NCBI RefSeq assembly: GCF_011045215.1
Contig: NZ_CP049201.1
Length of the DNA stretch: 64,000 nt
Source: Escherichia coli
GTDB taxonomy: Bacteria > Pseudomonadota > Gammaproteobacteria > Enterobacterales > Enterobacteriaceae
Reading direction: 5' to 3' (one strand)
Below the pieces are notes generated by a model. That model worked only from the letters and a program-made list of their open reading frames with translations, was not told the origin of the DNA and did no database searches. This document shows positions 1 through 14,204 of this stretch, one piece after another. Both the position numbers and the translations under genes were made by a program. The number at the start of each line of letters is the position of its first letter. Within the stretch, counting starts at the first letter, position 1.

Positions 1-56
1 GCACTGCTGGACACCCAGCCCACATCCTGACGCGCTTCGCTTGTCTGCTGCTTCGC

Positions 57-81
57 CGGGGCATAAAAAATTTATGCCCCG
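57..81. other. Perfect inverted repeat / stem-loop (CGGGGCATAAA-aaa-TTTATGCCCCG)
   Basis: 11-bp arms read directly; no adjacent T-tract, so not a canonical intrinsic terminator. Confidence 0.5.
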
Positions 82-560
82 ACTCTCCAGCTCCTGTATC
101 AATCAGATAATTTCACGACGTCTTCCAGCTTATTGCCATCATCGACGGTCAGGCTCTTACGCAATCCCATCGCGCTGACTGCATGTTCTCGCCGCCTCAG
201 TGCGATTTTGACGGCCTTATCTGCCACCCCATCAAATCAAAAGCCCTCACGTCTTTTTCACGCTCAGCGTGAGAAATACAGCCATTCTGTTGTGTTGCTG
301 CGACATCGTTCAGGGGATGCTATTTATCCCCTGAAACGCGGGCTGTTCCCCCGTCACCTGCGCGCAGAAAAAACGCGTTTTTTTGTGCACGCACGGATCC
401 TTGACGGATCCAGCCGCCACGGGGGCCGGAAGGGCAAAAAGTCGTTCAAAAAAATTGTGCAAATTTGTGCACTATCGTGCAGTGTGCATCGTGCTGTTTT
501 CTGCGCAAAAAACGGATGGTAAATTTGTTCGTAGCAGGGAAATTTTAATGAGCGCAAGAC

Positions 561-1091
561 ATGAAGAAAGATTCATATCCTTATTTGATTTGCATGACTG
601 TTTCAGTGCTAGGGATTATTTTCCTCTTTTACTGGTGGAGGGCAGATATCTACAGGATTACATATCTTAATTCGCGTATATCCAATTATTACATCTTGTG
701 TAGTATGGGTATGTCCTTTTTCTTCTCCTTGTTTCTGGTGAAGAGGGGGGTAGTGAAGCAAAGTGGCTGGAAAGGACTGTCGGAATACCTGAAGGTTTAT
801 GCTGGCTCTTGCATTCTTACAGGGATATTCCTGATTATTCCTCTTATGATGGTGACTTATTTTTTACCAGGAGTAACATCATCATATGTTGCACCGTATG
901 AGTATACATCTGGTAGTTCAAGAAGCTGTTCCGGAGCGTTTGTTGATGATCCCGAACTGCATAAAAATATTCTTATTTGCTATCCGTATGGTAACTATGA
1001 ATATGACAATATTATCTATGTTGAAAAGAAAACTAATGCATTGGGCGTTGTTGTGACGTATGCACAGACTGCACGAGACGATGCTGAATAA
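561..1091 (+). CDS. Hypothetical polytopic membrane protein (about 3 predicted TM helices, soluble C-terminal ~80 aa); AT-rich cargo gene
   Basis: 176-aa ORF with three long hydrophobic segments; strongly AT-rich relative to flanking DNA; no family recognised. Confidence 0.5.
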   Translation: MKKDSYPYLICMTVSVLGIIFLFYWWRADIYRITYLNSRISNYYILCSMGMSFFFSLFLVKRGVVKQSGWKGLSEYLKVYAGSCILTGIFLIIPLMMVTYFLPGVTSSYVAPYEYTSGSSRSCSGAFVDDPELHKNILICYPYGNYEYDNIIYVEKKTNALGVVVTYAQTARDDAE

Positions 1092-1282
1092 GATACTACA
1101 GATATAGTCCACTTTTTTGTTTATTTGTCGGGATAAAAACAAATTACCCCGACTCACCATGTATTAATCTTCCGCTTTAAGTTAGTATTTTAGCTGCGCT
1201 GTCCTGCTATTCAGCAAAGCGGCGTACTTTAATGCGTCCTGTGCTTTCTGGAATTTAAGTGCATAGTCAGTGGCGATTTTTT

Positions 1283-1564
1283 CTAGTTCAGCGATTCGGT
1301 TGTTTTTGGTTTCCAGCCAATCAAGTAGCGCCAATACTTCAGGATCCCGACATCCAACACTGTTACGCGTGATTTTTCATAATGTTCGTCGGCAAGAGTT
1401 CGGCCAATTTTGAAATCTCCATCATCACCATAACCGGAGCAGGCATAAACAACCTGTGCTCCAGATATTCGCTGAATTGACATTTCCTCGCCGCAAATAG
1501 GGCATTTCGGTACTGGCACAGGTGAATAACGTTCACGTAATGCCTGATAGTTGATTTCGCTCAT
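1283..1564 (-). CDS. Small zinc-ribbon protein (CPICG...CSG); probably frameshifted, coding signal continues in another frame to 1185
   Basis: 93-aa ORF with CxxC...C motif; protein-like translation continues in a second frame (DPEVLALLDWLETKNNRIAELEK...) past the stop at 1283. Confidence 0.4.
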   Translation of the reverse strand: MSEINYQALRERYSPVPVPKCPICGEEMSIQRISGAQVVYACSGYGDDGDFKIGRTLADEHYEKSRVTVLDVGILKYWRYLIGWKPKTTESLN

Positions 1565-1627
1565 TAAGTCGTTCTCCTTGTTTATGTTCTGAGGTGGAGA
1601 GCAGGGCGAACTCGCCCTGATGTTGTG

Positions 1628-1939
1628 TTATTCAGGAAATAACGCCCGGATATTTCCGGCCATCTGACTGGTTATCTGTGCGGTTGATACTGGCTGTGAT
1701 GCGGGGCGTTCTGTCCTGGTTTGTGTCACTGATAACGCTTCATCATCAGCCCATGCAGCTAGTCGGTAAGCCTCTGCCGGATTCATTTTCAGAAGTGCCA
1801 GCCCGGCCAGAAAAGCCACACGTTGGCCGCTTTTGCGGGCTTCTGGTGTAAGGCTGTCCAGCCAGGCGCATGCTTCGCCTTCGTTCTTGACGGCGGCGGG
1901 CTTCAGATAGAAACTTATCCGTCTGGTTGGTGTCGTCAT
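1628..1939 (-). CDS. parR: ParR (StbB)-like centromere-binding protein
   Basis: 103 aa from Met at 1939; resembles plasmid R1 ParR (from memory); AAGGAG RBS; starts 4 nt after parM stop. Confidence 0.55.
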   Translation of the reverse strand: MTTPTRRISFYLKPAAVKNEGEACAWLDSLTPEARKSGQRVAFLAGLALLKMNPAEAYRLAAWADDEALSVTQTRTERPASQPVSTAQITSQMAGNIRALFPE

Positions 1940-1943
1940 TGGT

Positions 1944-2903
1944 TTACTCCTTGTCCATTGCGTACAGCCCATTAACCAGAGCAAACTGTGGCACCCCGTC
2001 CGCGATGAAAGTCGCATTAACTCCGCAGGCTTCGCGGATAGCGGGTGCCACAATCTCCGCCCCGCCACCGACAACCATCACCCGCCCGTAACCCGAAAAA
2101 ACCGCCAGCGCGCGGATCACGCGTTGTTTCAGTGTTTCTTCCTTTTCACGAATAACCGCCATCAGGCTGGCGTAATGCGCGTCATTGTGGATGTGTTGGC
2201 GCAACCAGGCTTCATCATGGCGATGTTCGATAATGGTATTGGCGATGTGGTGACTGGTACGCATACCGTTAGCGGCCATCACCGACAGCACGGCACCGGC
2301 CATCAGGGAGACGCCTACGTGTGGATCGCAAAACACCTGGCTGATACCTGCCAGTTGCCCCTGAACCTTTGCCACATCCAGCGTGGTTCCGCCTAAATCC
2401 ACAATCAGCAGGGATTCAAACGGACTCATGTCAGCCAGTGCTTTAAAGCCAGCCGGAATGGATTCAGGCATAACCCGCACGTTACGGATAGTGAATGCTT
2501 CGCCGTTCTGGTACTCCACCGGGCGCATAACGTTCGCTTTTTTGCGGTTGATGTTGGCCATGTCCGGCTGTGCGTTTGTGTCGAAATACTCGCTCAGTGG
2601 CAGGGTGACAACCACATCCACCTCCTGTGGCGTGATGCCTGATTTGACCAGCGTGTGATGAATGGCGATTACATTCACATCGCTGTACTGGTATTGCGTG
2701 TCGGTCGTCTGGACAAAGCGATCGCTGACCGGATCAAAACCATAGCGCACGCCATCAAGCATGTAGTTCGCGGGCTGCATGCCACCGAACGGCGCAGATC
2801 ATTCCGACTTGAAGCTGTTCGGGCTGATGGCGTTGCGGCGTTCGCCATTCTCAGTCCATGCCAGCTTGATGTTGGTGGAGCCGTCGTCGATACAAATTTT
2901 CAT
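1944..2903 (-). pseudogene. parM: ParM (StbA)-like actin-type partition ATPase, interrupted by in-frame TGA at 2799-2801
   Basis: N-terminus MKICIDDGSTNIKLAW...NSFKSE then TGA, then in-frame continuation SAPFGGMQPANYML...; strong similarity to R1 ParM (from memory), where this position is Trp. Confidence 0.75.
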
Positions 2904-2932
2904 GTCGCTTTTCCTTATGTTGATTAATTAAT

Positions 2933-3050
2933 CGTTTACGGGATTCTGAAATCCCGTTTTTGCCTGTTTTGTGTGCGCTTCATATATCGCGGCGCGTTTT
3001 TTGCTCATTTACGGGATTTGTGAATCCCGTTTCTGTCTGTTTTTTGTTTC
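2933..3050. repeat. Two copies (2933-2975, 3006-3050) of a ~45-bp repeat, each with palindrome ACGGGATT-N4-AATCCCGT; candidate parC-like centromere/operator
   Basis: Direct repeat with internal inverted repeat, immediately upstream of the parM start. Confidence 0.6.
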
Positions 3051-4533
3051 CACTGGTCAGGCCACCCCGCAGCAGGTCTGCTTTGCGGCGGGCACGTTCA
3101 GTGGTTTCACTGATTCTCTGTGCGTGCTCTGCGTCGCGGATGGCGCGCAGCATGTCAGAAAGCACGGTAACGGGGGTTTTCATGGTGTTCTGGTCCTGCT
3201 GAAGTGTGGATGCCAGACGTGCGGCGGCTTCGAGGTCTGATGCCCCCAGCTGTTCCAGATAGCTGGCGACCGGGTTATGGCGGATCTCCGTGCTGCTTAC
3301 GCCGTGATTACGGCTCAGGCGCTGCCAGAGCTGCGTGATTCGGCTGTCCGGGCGGGTATCCGGTTTGCGTACAATTTCAAATCCCTGCGGTGCAATGATG
3401 CTGCCGTCAACGTACAGGCTGCCGCCCCGTAACAGGTGCTGCATCTGCTGTTCACCGATATGCATGCCGAGAGATTCGGCAGATTCCCGCCATTCTTTAG
3501 CGAGTAATTCGTGGTTATCAGGCAAAGGCCGCTGCTGTTTGCGGCTCTGTGTCCAGCTCTGCATTTCATCACTGCTGTTTTTTGCCTGTTTGTCACGCAG
3601 CGAACGCATCAGCGCCCGGCGTTCGTGCCGTTTCAGTGAGCGCACCCATTCATCCACATCAACGCCGTCAGGAAGCTGCGGCCACGGTGCTGGCCGTTCT
3701 TCCGGCTGTTCTGTCCCGTTGTTGTCCGTTTCCTGTACACGGGGACAGTTATTGCCACGAGTCCAAGGGGCGGCAGGGCCGCTCTGAAGGTCAAAACCAT
3801 TTTCGCGGGAGCTGTCTTCCGCTTCCGGTTTGCGTCTTACCAGCTTCCAGTTATCCGGATGCGTGCATACGCGGGAAGACTCCCCGATGAGCGGCGACCA
3901 GATCCCGTAAATCTGTACACTCTGCTCACCGTAATCGTTCAGTTCATCTGCGAGGTCGTAGGCGGTGCGAATCAGGTAGTCTTTGCGTGGAACAAGCACG
4001 CCACCCTGTTTTTCAATGTAGGTGGCAAAACACCCGGCATCAGCGGCAGCGAGTACCGCATCCATTGCGTCATCCTTCAGCCGTTGCGGGCCTTCCGGGT
4101 TGCGTGCCATCTGGCTGGCAAGGCGGCGCAGTTCACGCCACACCTGACGGGAGGGGATACCAAAGAACTGGAACTGGCGGACCCGGTGAAGGCGCGCCCA
4201 GCCGATGGCGCGTTCCACGCTCTCGGCCATTGATTTTCCGGTTTCGTGGTCAACGCGTGGCTTGCCCGTTTTCGGGTCGATGCCATCCACGGCGCGGCTG
4301 TCCAGGTTCTTTCCGATGTAGGTGGCGATGTAGCTGGTTGGCGTGCCTTTTGAGCCGTCGACGTACTCCGCCTTAAAACGCGGAGTTATGTCATCGCCCA
4401 GCTCGTGGCGGTCTTCCTGAATGGCAATATCGCAGACGTGGGACACGATGGTTTCAATCTCGTCCGGATGTGCAAAGACCATCATATGCCAGTGCACAGT
4501 GCCGTCATGGTGAGGCTCCAGCGGTGTATTCAC
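2980..4533 (-). pseudogene. HUH-motif rolling-circle replication initiator, P2 gpA-like; apparently 5'-truncated
   Basis: 517-aa ORF begins at GTG right at the motif HHDGTVHWHMMVFAHPDE, preceded by in-frame TGA; upstream 300 bp is coding-like in two other frames. Confidence 0.5.
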
Positions 4534-4686: not shown

Positions 4687-4836
4687 CTACTGTGAAATAA
4701 AGGGTGAGCGTTGTTCTTTAGCTGCCATTTCATCAATGACGGCTCGCTCTTCGAGGGACAGCCGAAGTGCCAGTCTTGGACCTGTGGCGGTGTTACGCGG
4801 AATGCGTGATCTGGTATCGTGAAGAACTTGTTTCAT
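4687..4836 (-). CDS. Small 49-aa ORF divergent from the XRE gene (possible Cox/excisionase-like or RHH regulator)
   Basis: ATG at 4836 to TAG at 4687; below the 60-aa ORF-track cutoff; position equivalent to cox in a P2-type early region. Confidence 0.3.
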   Translation of the reverse strand: MKQVLHDTRSRIPRNTATGPRLALRLSLEERAVIDEMAAKEQRSPFISQ

Positions 4837-4911: not shown

Positions 4912-5316
4912 ATGAAAAATGATATTGGTCAGCGGTTGCGTGAGGAAAGGGAAAGATTGGGGCTTAGTCAAGTTGCTATGAGCGACATTGGTGGAGTCAA
5001 AAAGCTAACTCAGCTTAGATATGAGAAAGGAGATAGCTTTCCTGATGCTGCGTATTTGGCAGCGCTGTCTCGTTTTGGCCTTGATGTTCAGTATGTTGTG
5101 TTGGGAATTCACTCACCTGAAACTTATAACGATGATGAGCAGGAGTTGATTACTCGCTTTCGAGCAGCTTCGTTAGATGTAAAAAACGCGGTGATCGGGG
5201 CTTTAAAAGGTGCGGGCAGTGAAAAGGAAACTCAGCCATCAGGGCGTGAGTTAAATATTTCTGGTGGTAATAACCGTATCGCTGGTCGTGACTATAACGA
5301 AACTAAGGGTAGGTGA
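4912..5316 (+). CDS. XRE-family helix-turn-helix protein (repressor-like) with C-terminal tail carrying an NNRIAGRDYNE motif
   Basis: N-terminal HTH signature (IGQRLREERERLGLSQVAMSDIGGVKKLTQLRYEKG); low GC. Confidence 0.7.
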   Translation: MKNDIGQRLREERERLGLSQVAMSDIGGVKKLTQLRYEKGDSFPDAAYLAALSRFGLDVQYVVLGIHSPETYNDDEQELITRFRAASLDVKNAVIGALKGAGSEKETQPSGRELNISGGNNRIAGRDYNETKGR

Positions 5317-5331: not shown

Positions 5332-5982
5332 ATGGCCGTCAACTCAAACGGTTCAAACAATCGCGTTGCTGGGCGTGATTTTCACGAAAAGAATATTCAG
5401 ATAGAGCGATATGATGGTTCTCATACCGTCAATATCGCAATCCCTTCGAATAATGATGATGACGCTCGCCCTTTGCTTAAGGCACAGCGTAAGGAGCTAA
5501 ATAGCTTGGTTGCTGCTATTGCAGAAGCTAGCAATACTGAAGCGTTTATTATTTGGCAAAAAGTACATGCGGAGATTGGTGTAGCTGGTATTGATGATAT
5601 GACAATAAATCAATATAAAACAGCGGAGAGTTTTCTGCATGCAATGCTTGAGCGATGTAAAGATCATGATGCCTGTAAGACTCTTGTAAGTTTATTACTA
5701 CGTAACAGTGAAGACTGTGGACTTCGACAAAAACTTCTGCGGTATTGCCATATCAATTTCGGTACAGGACGTTTAAACGATCTTACTCGTTCTCAGTTAC
5801 AGTCTGCATTGTCGTGGTTAGAGCAACAATCGGTATCAAGCCACTCAGAGAATTCGACCTTACCAGAAGTTCGCCTTCGTGCTTCAGAATTAATCCGATT
5901 TTATCCAAAAGAAATAATATTCTTTATCTGCGTAGGGGTTTTGGTAGGCGGAGCCATTTCTAGGATGTTTTTTAATTTGTAA
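5332..5982 (+). CDS. Hypothetical protein, cytoplasmic domain plus single C-terminal transmembrane anchor; N-terminus repeats the NNRVAGRDFHE motif
   Basis: 216 aa; strong RBS AGGGAGGTGA 5 nt upstream; C-terminal hydrophobic segment IIFFICVGVLVGGAI; low GC. Confidence 0.6.
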   Translation: MAVNSNGSNNRVAGRDFHEKNIQIERYDGSHTVNIAIPSNNDDDARPLLKAQRKELNSLVAAIAEASNTEAFIIWQKVHAEIGVAGIDDMTINQYKTAESFLHAMLERCKDHDACKTLVSLLLRNSEDCGLRQKLLRYCHINFGTGRLNDLTRSQLQSALSWLEQQSVSSHSENSTLPEVRLRASELIRFYPKEIIFFICVGVLVGGAISRMFFNL

Positions 5983-6011: not shown

Positions 6012-6359
6012 ATGAAAGTAAAAAAGGTTCAACTATTAGTTGCTTTTTTATCTATGTTTTCTTTTTCCGCCGTCGCAATGCCTTTTAAAACTATTGAACG
6101 TGAGAGTTTCAATGGAGTATGGCCATTTAATACAGATGAGGTTCAATTGCAGTGTCTTGATGGTAATCCTTATGTGATGAATTTTGACGATAATAAGTTA
6201 TATGCGCTTACAGGTTTGGCTCGAATAAAAGGTAAAACATTTGGTGCGTTACCGTTAGATAACAATAATCCATTTTGGCTAGATAATGATGCCGCCCCAG
6301 GGTTAAAAAAGAATCTGGGGGACGTCACTAAGGCTGCATTTGATTTATGTGATAAGTAA
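6012..6359 (+). CDS. Small secreted/periplasmic protein with signal peptide (tentatively DUF2511/YebY-like)
   Basis: 115 aa; N-terminal signal peptide MKVKKVQLLVAFLSMFSFSAVA; family assignment from memory only. Confidence 0.55.
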   Translation: MKVKKVQLLVAFLSMFSFSAVAMPFKTIERESFNGVWPFNTDEVQLQCLDGNPYVMNFDDNKLYALTGLARIKGKTFGALPLDNNNPFWLDNDAAPGLKKNLGDVTKAAFDLCDK

Positions 6360-6364
6360 CAAAA

Positions 6365-7366
6365 ATGTCGGTTCGTAAAACTCCATCAGGTAAATGGCTT
6401 TGCGAATGTTATCCCTACGGAGCATCGGGAAAACGCATTCGTAAACAGTTTGCGACAAAAAGTGAGGCGCTCTCTTATGAGCGCCGTTTAATGAATAGTA
6501 GAGTTGGAGACGAGTTTCAAGATGGTTCTGGTCCTCGTCTTTCTGAGTTGATTGCTCGTTGGTTTGAGATGTACGGAAAAACCTTGTCCTCTGGTGCAGA
6601 GCGCAAAGTCAAACTTGAGGCGATTTGTTCTAGGCTGGGAGATCCATTTGCTTCTCAGTTTGACAAAAATATGTTTGCTACTTATCGGGAAAGAAGGCTA
6701 TCAGGAGAATGGAATCCCAAGGGGAAGAAAAAACTTAGTGAAGCAACCGTTAATCGCGAGCAGTCATATCTACATGCTGTTTTTGCCGAACTGAAGCGCC
6801 TTGGGGAGTGGTCTGGTGAAAACCCCCTGACTGGAATTCGCAAGTTTCGTGAGGAAGAAAAGGAGCTGGCGTTTCTGTATGTAGATGAGATTGAACGCCT
6901 TTTGATTGCGTGTGATGATTCACGGAATAAAGATTTGGGGGTTGTTGTCCGTATTGGGCTTGCGACTGGTGCTCGGTGGAGTGAAGCAGAAGGATTAAAG
7001 CAATCTCAAGTACTGCCCGGTCGAATCACATTTGTTAAAACTAAAGGAAAGAAGAACCGCACTGTACCGATTTCACCTCAATTGCAGGCTATGCTTCCTA
7101 AAAAACGAGGAGCGCTATTTTCACCATGTTATGAGGCTTTTGACGCTGCAATTAAGAGAGCGAAGATAGAGCTCCCTGATGGGCAATTAACTCATGTGCT
7201 ACGTCACACGTTTGCTAGTCATTTTATGATGCGGGGCGGAAATATTCTTGTGTTGCAAAAAATACTGGGGCATAGCGATATAAAAATGACTATGCGTTAT
7301 GCGCATTTTGCTCCGGGTCATTTAGAGGCTGCTGTTGAATTAAACCCTTTTGACAATAGAGGGTAA
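6365..7366 (+). CDS. int: Tyrosine recombinase, P2-type phage integrase
   Basis: 333 aa; motifs LATGARWSEA, ITFVKTKGKKNRTVPIS, HVLRHTFASHFMMRGGNILVLQKILGH, MRYAHF closely match P2 Int (from memory). Confidence 0.9.
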   Translation: MSVRKTPSGKWLCECYPYGASGKRIRKQFATKSEALSYERRLMNSRVGDEFQDGSGPRLSELIARWFEMYGKTLSSGAERKVKLEAICSRLGDPFASQFDKNMFATYRERRLSGEWNPKGKKKLSEATVNREQSYLHAVFAELKRLGEWSGENPLTGIRKFREEEKELAFLYVDEIERLLIACDDSRNKDLGVVVRIGLATGARWSEAEGLKQSQVLPGRITFVKTKGKKNRTVPISPQLQAMLPKKRGALFSPCYEAFDAAIKRAKIELPDGQLTHVLRHTFASHFMMRGGNILVLQKILGHSDIKMTMRYAHFAPGHLEAAVELNPFDNRG

Positions 7367-7722: not shown

Positions 7723-8388
7723 ATGAAAACGGGACCGTTAAACGAAAGTGAGTTGGAATGGCTGGACGATATTCTGACCAAATACAACACTGACCACGCC
7801 ATCCTTGATGTGGCGGAGCTGGACGGTTTATTGACGGCAGTGTTGAGTTCTCCGCAAGAGATTGAACCGGCACAGTGGCTGGTTGCCGTGTGGGGTGGGG
7901 CTGACTATGTGCCGCGCTGGGCGTCAGAGAAAGAGATGACGCGCTTTATGAACCTGGCTTTTCAACATATGGCCGATACCGCAGAGCGTCTGAACGAATT
8001 CCCGGAGCAGTTTGAGCCGTTATTCGGCTTGCGAGAAGTTGATGGCAGCGAGCTGACGATTGTTGAGGAGTGGTGCTTTGGCTATATGCGGGGCGTGGCA
8101 CTTTCTGACTGGTCAACATTGCCCGATTCGTTAAAACCAGCGCTGGAGGCGATAGCGCTGCACGGTACTGAGGAAAACTTCGAGCGGGTAGAGAAGATGT
8201 CGCCAGAAGCGTTTGAAGAGAGCGTAGATGCCATTCGACTGGCGGCGCTTGATTTACATGCATACTGGATGGCGCATCCGCAGGAAAAAGCTGTTCAGCA
8301 ACCGATCAAAGCAGAAGAGAAACCGGGGCGTAACGATCCTTGTCCGTGCGGCAGTGGTAAGAAATTTAAGCAGTGCTGCCTGCATTAA
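7723..8388 (+). CDS. yecA: UPF0149 protein YecA with C-terminal SEC-C zinc motif
   Basis: 221 aa; C-terminal [13 protein letters not shown]; K-12 synteny. Confidence 0.9.
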
Positions 8389-12418: not shown

Positions 12419-13214
12419 ACCTAATATCCTTATATCCAGAAGTGGAGAGGTGCAAGATAAATCAAAACACCATAATTACTGTTTGCAGAATAATTCCTTT
12501 CTGCCGGTCCGAAATGTGATCGTGGAGTCAATTCTGACGATGATCTGAAATAAGAATAACGTCTGAACGGGTATAAGAAAATGCTTAAATCATCAAGTTT
12601 ATATATTTTTACATTTCATTGATGAAATCAATGTAACTGCAATGAATTTTAATGATAGTGCTTTTTGTATCTTGTTGATATTAATCGATGAATTTGAATT
12701 CATGATGAAGTGATGATTTTATAAAACGTTTTTTCATTTTTGCGAGATGGCTCTCATTATACGTGTTCTGTTAATTAATGAGCACAGTGATAATTAATGG
12801 CGAAATGAATGACGCGCATTTTCCACATCTTTGAGTTGTGGTTATTACACCATTTCAAAAACTCAACGCCAGGTAATGCGGCCTATTGACTGGTTAAAAA
12901 GAAGACATCCCGCATGGGTACCAAAGACAACAAGGATTTCCAGGCTAATCTTATGGATTAATCTGCTGTGCATTCGACAATTTGTCTGACAAATTGGCTT
13001 TCCCTTATGTCTTTTCCCGCTAAATTTATGCACGTTCTCACTGTAATTCTGCGATGTGATATTGCTCTCCTATGGAGAATTAATTTCTCGCTAAAACTAT
13101 GTCAACACGGTCACTTATCTTTTAGTTAAAAGGTAATGCTTTGTTTTCCGATTAATTTAACGAATGTCATTCGTTTTTGCCCTACACAAAACGACACTAA
13201 AGCTGGAGAGAACC

Positions 13215-14204
13215 ATGCACAAATTTACTAAAGCCCTGGCAGCCATTGGTCTGGCAGCCGTTATGTCACAATCCGCTATGGCGGAGAACCTGAAGCTCGG
13301 TTTTCTGGTGAAGCAACCGGAAGAGCCGTGGTTCCAGACCGAATGGAAGTTTGCCGATAAAGCCGGGAAGGATTTAGGGTTTGAGGTTATTAAGATTGCC
13401 GTGCCGGATGGCGAAAAAACATTGAACGCGATCGACAGCCTGGCTGCCAGTGGCGCAAAAGGTTTCGTTATTTGTACTCCGGACCCCAAACTCGGCTCTG
13501 CCATCGTCGCGAAAGCGCGTGGCTACGATATGAAAGTCATTGCCGTGGATGACCAGTTTGTTAATGCCAAAGGTAAGCCAATGGATACCGTTCCGCTGGT
13601 GATGATGGCGGCGACTAAAATTGGCGAACGTCAGGGCCAGGAACTGTATAAAGAGATGCAGAAACGGGGTTGGGATGTCAAAGAAAGCGCGGTGATGGCG
13701 ATTACCGCCAACGAACTGGATACCGCCCGCCGCCGTACAACGGGTTCTATGGACGCACTGAAAGCGGCCGGATTCCCGGAAAAACAAATTTATCAGGTAC
13801 CTACCAAATCTAACGACATCCCGGGGGCATTTGACGCTGCCAACTCAATGCTGGTTCAACATCCGGAAGTTAAACATTGGCTGATCGTCGGTATGAACGA
13901 CAGCACCGTACTTGGCGGCGTACGTGCAACCGAAGGTCAGGGCTTTAAAGCAGCCGATATCATCGGTATTGGTATTAACGGTGTGGATGCCGTAAGCGAA
14001 CTGTCTAAAGCACAGGCAACCGGCTTCTACGGTTCCCTGCTGCCAAGCCCGGATGTTCATGGCTATAAATCCAGCGAAATGCTTTACAACTGGATAGCAA
14101 AAGACGTTGAACCGCCAAAATTTACCGAAGTTACCGACGTGGTACTGATCACGCGTGACAACTTTAAAGAAGAACTGGAGAAAAAAGGTTTAGGCGGTAA
14201 GTAA
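13215..14204 (+). CDS. araF: L-arabinose ABC transporter periplasmic binding protein
   Basis: 329 aa from MHKFTKALAAIGLAAVMSQSAMA. Confidence 0.95.
   Translation: MHKFTKALAAIGLAAVMSQSAMAENLKLGFLVKQPEEPWFQTEWKFADKAGKDLGFEVIKIAVPDGEKTLNAIDSLAASGAKGFVICTPDPKLGSAIVAKARGYDMKVIAVDDQFVNAKGKPMDTVPLVMMAATKIGERQGQELYKEMQKRGWDVKESAVMAITANELDTARRRTTGSMDALKAAGFPEKQIYQVPTKSNDIPGAFDAANSMLVQHPEVKHWLIVGMNDSTVLGGVRATEGQGFKAADIIGIGINGVDAVSELSKAQATGFYGSLLPSPDVHGYKSSEMLYNWIAKDVEPPKFTEVTDVVLITRDNFKEELEKKGLGGK

Follow-up and report, generated by a model that had tools for sequence, protein, structure and literature searches.

A premature stop codon in the parM gene of a P88-like prophage of Escherichia coli carrying a plasmid-type parMR module

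A putative plasmid partitioning system has been recorded in about a fourth of P2-like phages, where it occupies the hotspot between gpA and gpQ (Rousset et al. 2022, PMC9122126). On an integrated prophage of another kind, CGP3 of Corynebacterium glutamicum, the AlpAC system is induced early, links the phage's circular DNA to actin-like filaments and is required for CGP3 to replicate efficiently (Donovan et al. 2015, PMC4446434). Here we analysed a stretch of 64,000 nucleotides of Escherichia coli DNA (contig NZ_CP049201.1 of assembly GCF_011045215.1; hereafter, the window), in which a prophage carries a module of the plasmid type made up of parM, for an actin-like ATPase, and parR, for its DNA-binding adaptor. 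Taking our findings together, the best overall explanation, which we regard as highly probable, is that parM has become a pseudogene beside an intact parR, in a grounded P88-like prophage that carries parMR as cargo.

The parM pseudogene lies on the minus strand (1944..2903) and belongs to the actin-like segregation ATPases of the R1 ParM/StbA type. Its frame of 319 codons (320 including the terminal stop) opens with an ATG at 2903..2901, reads MKICIDDGSTNIKLAW... at its start and closes with a stop at 1946..1944. After an N-terminal piece of 34 sense codons (MKICIDDGSTNIKLAWTENGERRNAISPNSFKSE; 2802..2903), codon 35 is an in-frame TGA (2801..2799), beyond which the frame stays open for 284 sense codons more; the open reading frame (ORF) of 278 amino acids that was listed for the window (1944..2780, minus strand) is the part of parM that follows from an internal Met at codon 42. 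When the stop is repaired to Trp, residues 2-316 align with residues 2-318 of R1 ParM (PDB 1mwk and others; E 2.8e-92), and the repaired protein gives a full-length match to PHROG 691, “partition protein.” Pfam StbA_N/ParM_N was found on the identical ParM fragments in a draft assembly (L004, below), whereas NCBIfam gave no match of use for any protein of the locus. The column of the stop is Trp36 of R1 ParM, in “SPNSFKREW.” Four bases past the parM stop begins parR (1628..1939, minus strand), which is intact and encodes a ribbon-helix-helix-type adaptor of 103 amino acids of the StbB/ParR family (Pfam PF10784 Plasmid_stab_B, E 2e-24; PHROG 2515). The original prediction, made from the DNA letters alone, had described a type II ParM/ParR module whose parM runs from the ATG at 2903 through a TGA at 2799-2801 in one frame into the 278-residue ORF, with Trp as the aligned R1 residue; the coordinates and the frame proved exact, and the homologies bear out both the type of the module and the residue.

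Codon 35 is TGG in E. coli 2011C-4251, which is the nearest of the complete genomes, as well as in phage P88 and seven further relatives; the related elements include eight intact parM copies, all with TGG, so that inactivation by a single change from TGG to TGA, as had been proposed, agrees with every relative examined. Could the TGA nevertheless be a sequencing or assembly error, with parM intact in the organism? No exact match to a 57-mer with the TGA at its centre was found among the 1247 complete E. coli genomes in which the region is present (the nearest, at 98.2%, has one mismatch), and a 36-mer with the TGA likewise has none in an exact-pattern scan of the GTDB species-representative genomes. 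However, the same TGA occurs in three independent NCBI draft assemblies, L003 (GCA_050549705.1), L004 (GCA_900480435.1) and L005 (GCA_019374725.1), the first two reached through contigs with an identical integrase and the third through a look-up of the 278-residue fragment, and in these the prophage is 99.9% identical to that of the window and sits at the same site beside yecA/tyrP. The index of the contig collection lists the 278-residue fragment in 58 blocks, and the 24 contigs read all share a common neighbourhood; exact look-up of the window's own ORFs of 278 and 517 amino acids gave no match, the window being one residue (V268) off the deposited fragment. Shared by three independent assemblies, the TGA is an allele that one prophage lineage inherits and not an artefact, and we consider an error to be very improbable. 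The nonsense codon in parM is a genuine inherited allele, derived from TGG. It is also a rare one, as none was found in the complete E. coli genomes or the GTDB representatives.

What the stop does to the protein can be seen from an alignment of 80 diverse full-length ParM representatives, drawn from a search of 1.84 billion proteins. The 34-codon fragment holds the phosphate-1 ATP-binding motif D6-x-G8-S9-x-x-x-K13, a loop that is near-invariant in the representatives (D6 in 77, G8 in 79, S9 in 73 and K13 in 76 of the 80). Because the TGA severs this loop (residues 6-13) from the remainder, no functional ParM filament protein is encoded. Trp35 itself is present in only 12 of the 80: conservation of Trp at the position of the stop is a property of the R1-like ParM subfamily and not of the family, and the original description of a stop at a conserved Trp therefore stands for the former and fails for the latter. 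One might suppose that the 278-residue ORF is a functional, N-terminally shortened ParM, given that its ATG follows the stop by 7 codons and that gene callers annotate it as a coding sequence. Such a protein would be missing the near-invariant DxGSxxxK phosphate-binding loop, and no spaced Shine-Dalgarno sequence was found ahead of Met42. A natural start at Met42, which the original prediction had named as a finding that would speak against it, is further contradicted by the homologues: all of them use the upstream Met as their start, and of 8 intact relatives, 7 have Thr or Ser at codon 42. A shortened but working ParM is thus very hard to credit.

Selection on intact copies bears on whether the loss is real. 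Over eight intact parM copies (28 non-independent pairs), the mean pairwise Nei-Gojobori ratio of nonsynonymous to synonymous substitution rates (dN/dS) is 0.054, and the ratio of counts (nd/sd) is 0.20; a dN/dS of about 0.05 indicates that parM is functional and constrained in the integrating phages. The branch leading to the TGA allele carries, besides the nonsense change, three nonsynonymous substitutions (A84T, D203G, T211A) and one synonymous substitution, a ratio of 3:1 that equals the neutral expectation from the 735:222 ratio of sites, unlike the background of about 0.2:1. UGA is the stop codon most prone to readthrough in E. coli, and tRNA-Trp is its usual misreader. A leaky stop, at which near-cognate tRNA-Trp reads UGA, would therefore supply wild-type ParM at a low level and leave the module working at a reduced dose; the misread residue would be the ancestral Trp, and parR is unchanged, as such a scheme would have it. 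The 3:1 ratio, which looks neutral against its background, fits relaxed constraint instead and favours true loss of function over efficient readthrough. ParM polymerisation also needs a critical concentration, and the early promoter region has been deleted in the window as well. We regard functional readthrough as improbable. Selenocysteine insertion or programmed recoding at the TGA was considered and rejected, since all relatives encode TGG. A different kind of damage was seen in Escherichia phage 503458 (L012, 911-1857), in which indels (4 gap openings against the window) break parM into three annotated pieces and parR is disrupted too; this locus is either another decayed copy or low-quality sequence.

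The element that carries the module is a P88-like prophage (Xuanwuvirus, P2 family, Peduoviridae) integrated beside yecA. Window positions 1-4520 are 97-98% identical to the relative L001 and to P88 and 99.9% identical to L005, and the order of genes is of the P88 type: portal, accessory genes, parR, parM, gene A, immunity region and integrase. The module falls in the interval from gpA to gpQ, the portal gene; this interval is the P2 cargo hotspot. This synteny beside yecA upholds the proposal that the module resides on a chromosomally integrated P2-like element. The first reading of the DNA missed, however, that the prophage is itself defective, its gene A being truncated at the 5' end and cox and other early genes being deleted. 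What is left of gene A, the P2-type replication endonuclease gene, is a 3' remnant (2980..4520, minus strand; PHROG 91/6857, profile positions ~357-855) that corresponds to about residues 434-946 of the 946 amino acids in relatives. It ends at the junction of a first deletion (4519..4520), where alignment with near-identical prophages shows 1363 bp to be missing relative to L003/L001; lost with it are the first ~433 codons of gene A (the 5' 1.3 kb) and the 3' end of an upstream ORF of 129 amino acids. A second deletion has its junction at 4698..4706, with 9 bp of microhomology, and lacks ~2073 bp compared with L003, including the gene for a Cox-like excisionase/repressor, DUF4761, DUF4754 and other early genes; the 67-residue ORF deleted here belongs to PHROG 575, Cox-like, with E 1.2e-27. 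Between the two deletions, an island of 188 bp of the 129-residue ORF is left. Without the 5' portion of gene A and the block with cox and early genes, the prophage is grounded and decaying; its replication and excision gene set is incomplete (the structural genes lie outside the window).

Other parts of the prophage are whole, namely its integrase and repressor-like genes and parR. The immunity-repressor-like gene (4912..5316, plus strand) encodes a helix-turn-helix protein of 134 amino acids, matches the transcriptional repressors of PHROG 8/4/3 and has the same position as in L003. The tyrosine integrase (6365..7366, plus strand; 333 amino acids), identical in other assemblies, adjoins the chromosomal yecA (7723-8388). 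The proteins of the chromosomal part are exact E. coli sequences, and among complete genomes the flank finds its nearest match at 99.2%. Two cargo genes were noted between the repressor-like gene and the integrase, one for a protein of 216 amino acids with a Flk_N domain (5332-5982; PHROG 5825) and one for a YebY-like protein of 115 amino acids (6012-6359; PHROG 2950).

The order of these events can be read from the other TGA-carrying strains, in which gene A has its full 946 codons and the visible prophage looks complete. As the TGA is found there with an intact gene A, the mutation in parM came first and the deletions in the window came later. Compared with L005/L003, the prophage of the window has 4 differences in 4520 positions and 3 in 2694, whereas the flanking chromosome (yecA-tyrP) has 45 in 2678 (1.8%). 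With 99.9% identity in the prophage against 98.2% in the flank, the prophage is much younger than the divergence of its host flanks. The simplest reading of these sequences would be that a parM-null phage formed lysogens in two or more backgrounds, using the same att site each time; an alternative to lysogenisation of several backgrounds is local recombination of a segment that ends at the prophage. If a parM-null phage did enter several backgrounds, ParM would be dispensable for transmission.

A type II partition system on an integrated P2-like element had been thought unusual in itself, and this part of the original prediction did not hold. The module is present at 94-98% identity in 14 deposited phage genomes, among them P88, P88_4B11, Citrobacter rodentium phiSM, Chuche and 520873, and all phage records that were read with a genus assignment are Xuanwuvirus of the family Peduoviridae. 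It is present in 1306 of 5426 (24%) complete E. coli genomes, where 1451 of the 1453 places are chromosomal, and the copies in complete genomes are annotated in RefSeq as “plasmid segregation protein ParM,” adjoining a “replication endonuclease” (P2 gpA). Our 24% agrees with the one-fourth figure of Rousset et al. (PMC9122126). The parMR module is standard cargo of P88-like, P2-family phages and has already been recorded as such.

The same data bear on whether intact P88-like phages persist as a low-copy plasmid, that is, as facultative phage-plasmids, which Rousset et al. suggested (PMC9122126). Purifying selection on parM would suit such a life, and one record would exemplify it: NZ_CP148288.1 (L006; circular, 34,461 bp) is a complete P88-like genome with integrase and parMR whose database entry calls it a plasmid of E. 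coli strain Z1323PEC0009. This circle could be a true episome or an excised replicative form. It was the only episome-like record when related elements were checked for episomes; the other near-identical plasmid matches are prophages inside large replicons or one linear fragment, the latter being a Shigella boydii “plasmid” match that we rejected as an episome because it is a linear, IS1-riddled phage fragment. That nearly every place in the complete genomes is chromosomal speaks against a plasmid life, as does the integrase kept in every relative examined. No unbroken attP junction was found in the 439 genomes that match the phage ends, in a search that covers records other than circular ones, to which it is blind because they are split at their own start. 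In P2 biology, moreover, replication through gene A is rolling-circle, of the lytic type, and belongs to a repressed early operon. A standing plasmid state of the intact phages thus appears unlikely. The phage-plasmid ancestry or repurposed actin-like module that the original prediction had suggested is an idea with precedent in print and is at present speculative.

A 43-nt repeat occurs upstream of parM in two copies and no more, at a distance of 73 bp, and both copies contain a 20-bp palindrome, ACGGGATT-N4-AATCCCGT. The proximal copy (2932..2974, palindrome 2938-2957) falls within the 76 bp that separate gene A from parM, and we infer that it may serve as a ParR-binding, parC-like site; the distal copy (3005..3047, palindrome 3011-3030), recognised by comparison of the repeats, lies inside the 3' end of gene A. 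Two copies are also all that a complete 34.4-kb phage genome contains, and the palindromes are mostly invariant among relatives. The homologue on an IncL/M plasmid has the classical layout, with clusters of ~10-bp AT-rich iterons in a spacer of 240 bp, and its par locus lacks the palindrome motif; the window locus shows no evident parC of this classical iteron type. In the interval from gene A to parM, a crude scan against the consensus detected no sigma-70-like promoter, nor was there a minus-strand terminator. The absence of both from this interval suggests that parMR, which points the same way as the early genes, is co-transcribed with the early, repressor-controlled operon.

Based on these features and on the analogy with AlpAC, we tentatively propose a mechanism for the module in intact phages, which we hold to be possible but somewhat short of an even chance. 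ParR would bind the pair of 20-bp palindromes that lie upstream of parM, and the bound ParR would couple circular phage DNA to filaments of ParM-ATP. As parMR appears to share the transcript that runs from the early promoter through gene A, its action would fall in the replicative phase, on excised or infecting circular genomes and not on the integrated prophage, so that replicating circles might be spread or positioned as AlpAC does for prophage CGP3. Action on circles only would explain why loss of the module is tolerated in lysogens. Phages of the P2 type replicate by a gpA-initiated rolling circle and package monomeric circles; a machine that separates circles could plausibly aid replication, packaging or inheritance by both daughters. 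It is a more doubtful proposal that ParMR is a phage cytoskeleton that distributes or positions circles, or else supports a transient plasmid state, with the TGA lineage as a natural knock-out that spread between hosts all the same.

A quite different role would be competition or defence, the module acting, for example, to destabilise plasmids or phages with related centromeres. Its place would suit this, as the gpA-gpQ hotspot is home to old, tin, retrons and other defence genes. However, with a cut-off of E 0.01, neither ParM nor ParR nor any of four neighbouring proteins matched a PADLOC model, ParM and ParR are full-length and orthodox, and Rousset et al. class the module among “other functions” (PMC9122126). 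A defence device is therefore improbable, and positioning of circular phage DNA remains the role that we prefer.

Several points tell against our interpretation. Because UGA is leaky and tRNA-Trp restores the wild-type residue, a trace of full-length ParM is possible in the TGA lineage, and the substitution counts on the TGA branch are very small. The promoter scan is a crude consensus test. In place of the iteron array of the IncL/M homologue, the candidate parC consists of two sites; the palindrome variants in relatives are not compensatory, and both repeat copies resemble intrinsic terminators on the plus strand, and for these reasons we keep parC as a candidate designation. In the paper on the C. 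rodentium phiSM prophage, the module is filed merely as a “fitness” gene.

The exact ParR sequence of the window occurs on at least 1000 contigs, and a PDB sequence search with ParR gave no match. A second, highly divergent parR allele was observed in phage vB_EcoM-569R5 (L013, 432-746) and in ST131-type prophages, with synonymous divergence (dS) at saturation. The two alleles part after codon 18, while the ParM proteins that accompany them are still ~98% identical. Both share the first 18 residues, an “AFLAGLAL” core and a C-terminal “NIxxLFPE” tip, a pattern consistent with conservation of the strand that reads DNA and of the tip that contacts ParM. Just 3' of the parR stop lies a GC-rich hairpin (1602..1619; -13.8 kcal/mol) that is terminator-like on the plus strand, where transcription converges on parR. 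Further downstream of parR is an Ead/Ea22-like accessory gene for 93 amino acids (1283..1564, minus strand; PF13935 on the identical gene in L005). A gene for a predicted membrane protein of 176 amino acids (561-1091; PHROG 1416) also sits between the par module and the portal gene; the 90% cluster of this protein contains forms of 176 and 112 amino acids on ~1000 contigs each. The ~530 bp from the portal end to this gene (31-560) show no convincing ORF, and a P2-like cos site is expected there by position. The window begins with the last 30 nt of the portal gene (1..30, plus strand): positions 1..4520 correspond to L005 12780..8261, with the L005 portal at 12751-13797, and the prophage extends leftward past the window.

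By itself, our finding is a lineage-specific pseudogene in a known, widespread and RefSeq-annotated module, of low novelty and little consequence. Its interest lies in the setting, as roughly one in four P2-like prophages of E. coli, although they integrate, retain an actin-based segregation machine of the plasmid type on which strong purifying selection acts. If the TGA lineage did spread between hosts as a natural knock-out, parMR would be a fitness accessory and not an essential function, and the TGA lineage would offer ready isogenic test material: in strains of the L003/L005 type, the parM-null allele stands in an otherwise complete prophage and is a convenient natural knock-out.

Compared with known systems, the module is closest to parMR of other Xuanwuvirus phages (P88, NC_026014 gp17/gp18; phiSM parM/parP), with which it shares 94-98% nucleotide identity, the order gene A, parM, parR, accessory genes and portal, the 76-bp upstream spacer and the palindromes; the phages differ in that their codon 35 is TGG and their gene A complete, where the window has TGA and two deletions. 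With ParMRC (StbAB) of R1 it has in common full-length ParM homology, the ATP-binding loop, the Trp36 column, a ParR of the same Pfam family, the order of parM before parR and repeats upstream. Unlike in R1, it resides on an integrating phage and not on a plasmid, and where R1 has ~10 direct iterons flanking a promoter, the window has two 20-bp palindromes and no recognisable promoter of its own. The nearest true plasmid copies are only ~66% identical to it in DNA, and instead of the low-copy autonomous replicons on which type II systems reside, its copies are chromosomal prophages (1451 of 1453). It occupies the same locus as other cargo of the P2 gpA-gpQ (“tin/old”) hotspot (PMC9122126), most of which, where characterised, is anti-phage defence, whereas parMR has no match to a defence model. 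P1 and N15 resemble it in bearing a segregation module on a phage, ParABS and SopAB, respectively. These two are type I systems with a Walker ATPase, on prophages that never integrate, whereas the module of the window is of type II, on a phage that has an integrase and is integrated in more than 99% of cases. The best functional analogy is AlpAC of CGP3, in which an actin-like ATPase and a DNA-binding adaptor are likewise carried by an integrated prophage, albeit with an ATPase of a different actin-like family, with alpA before alpC and in a Gram-positive host.

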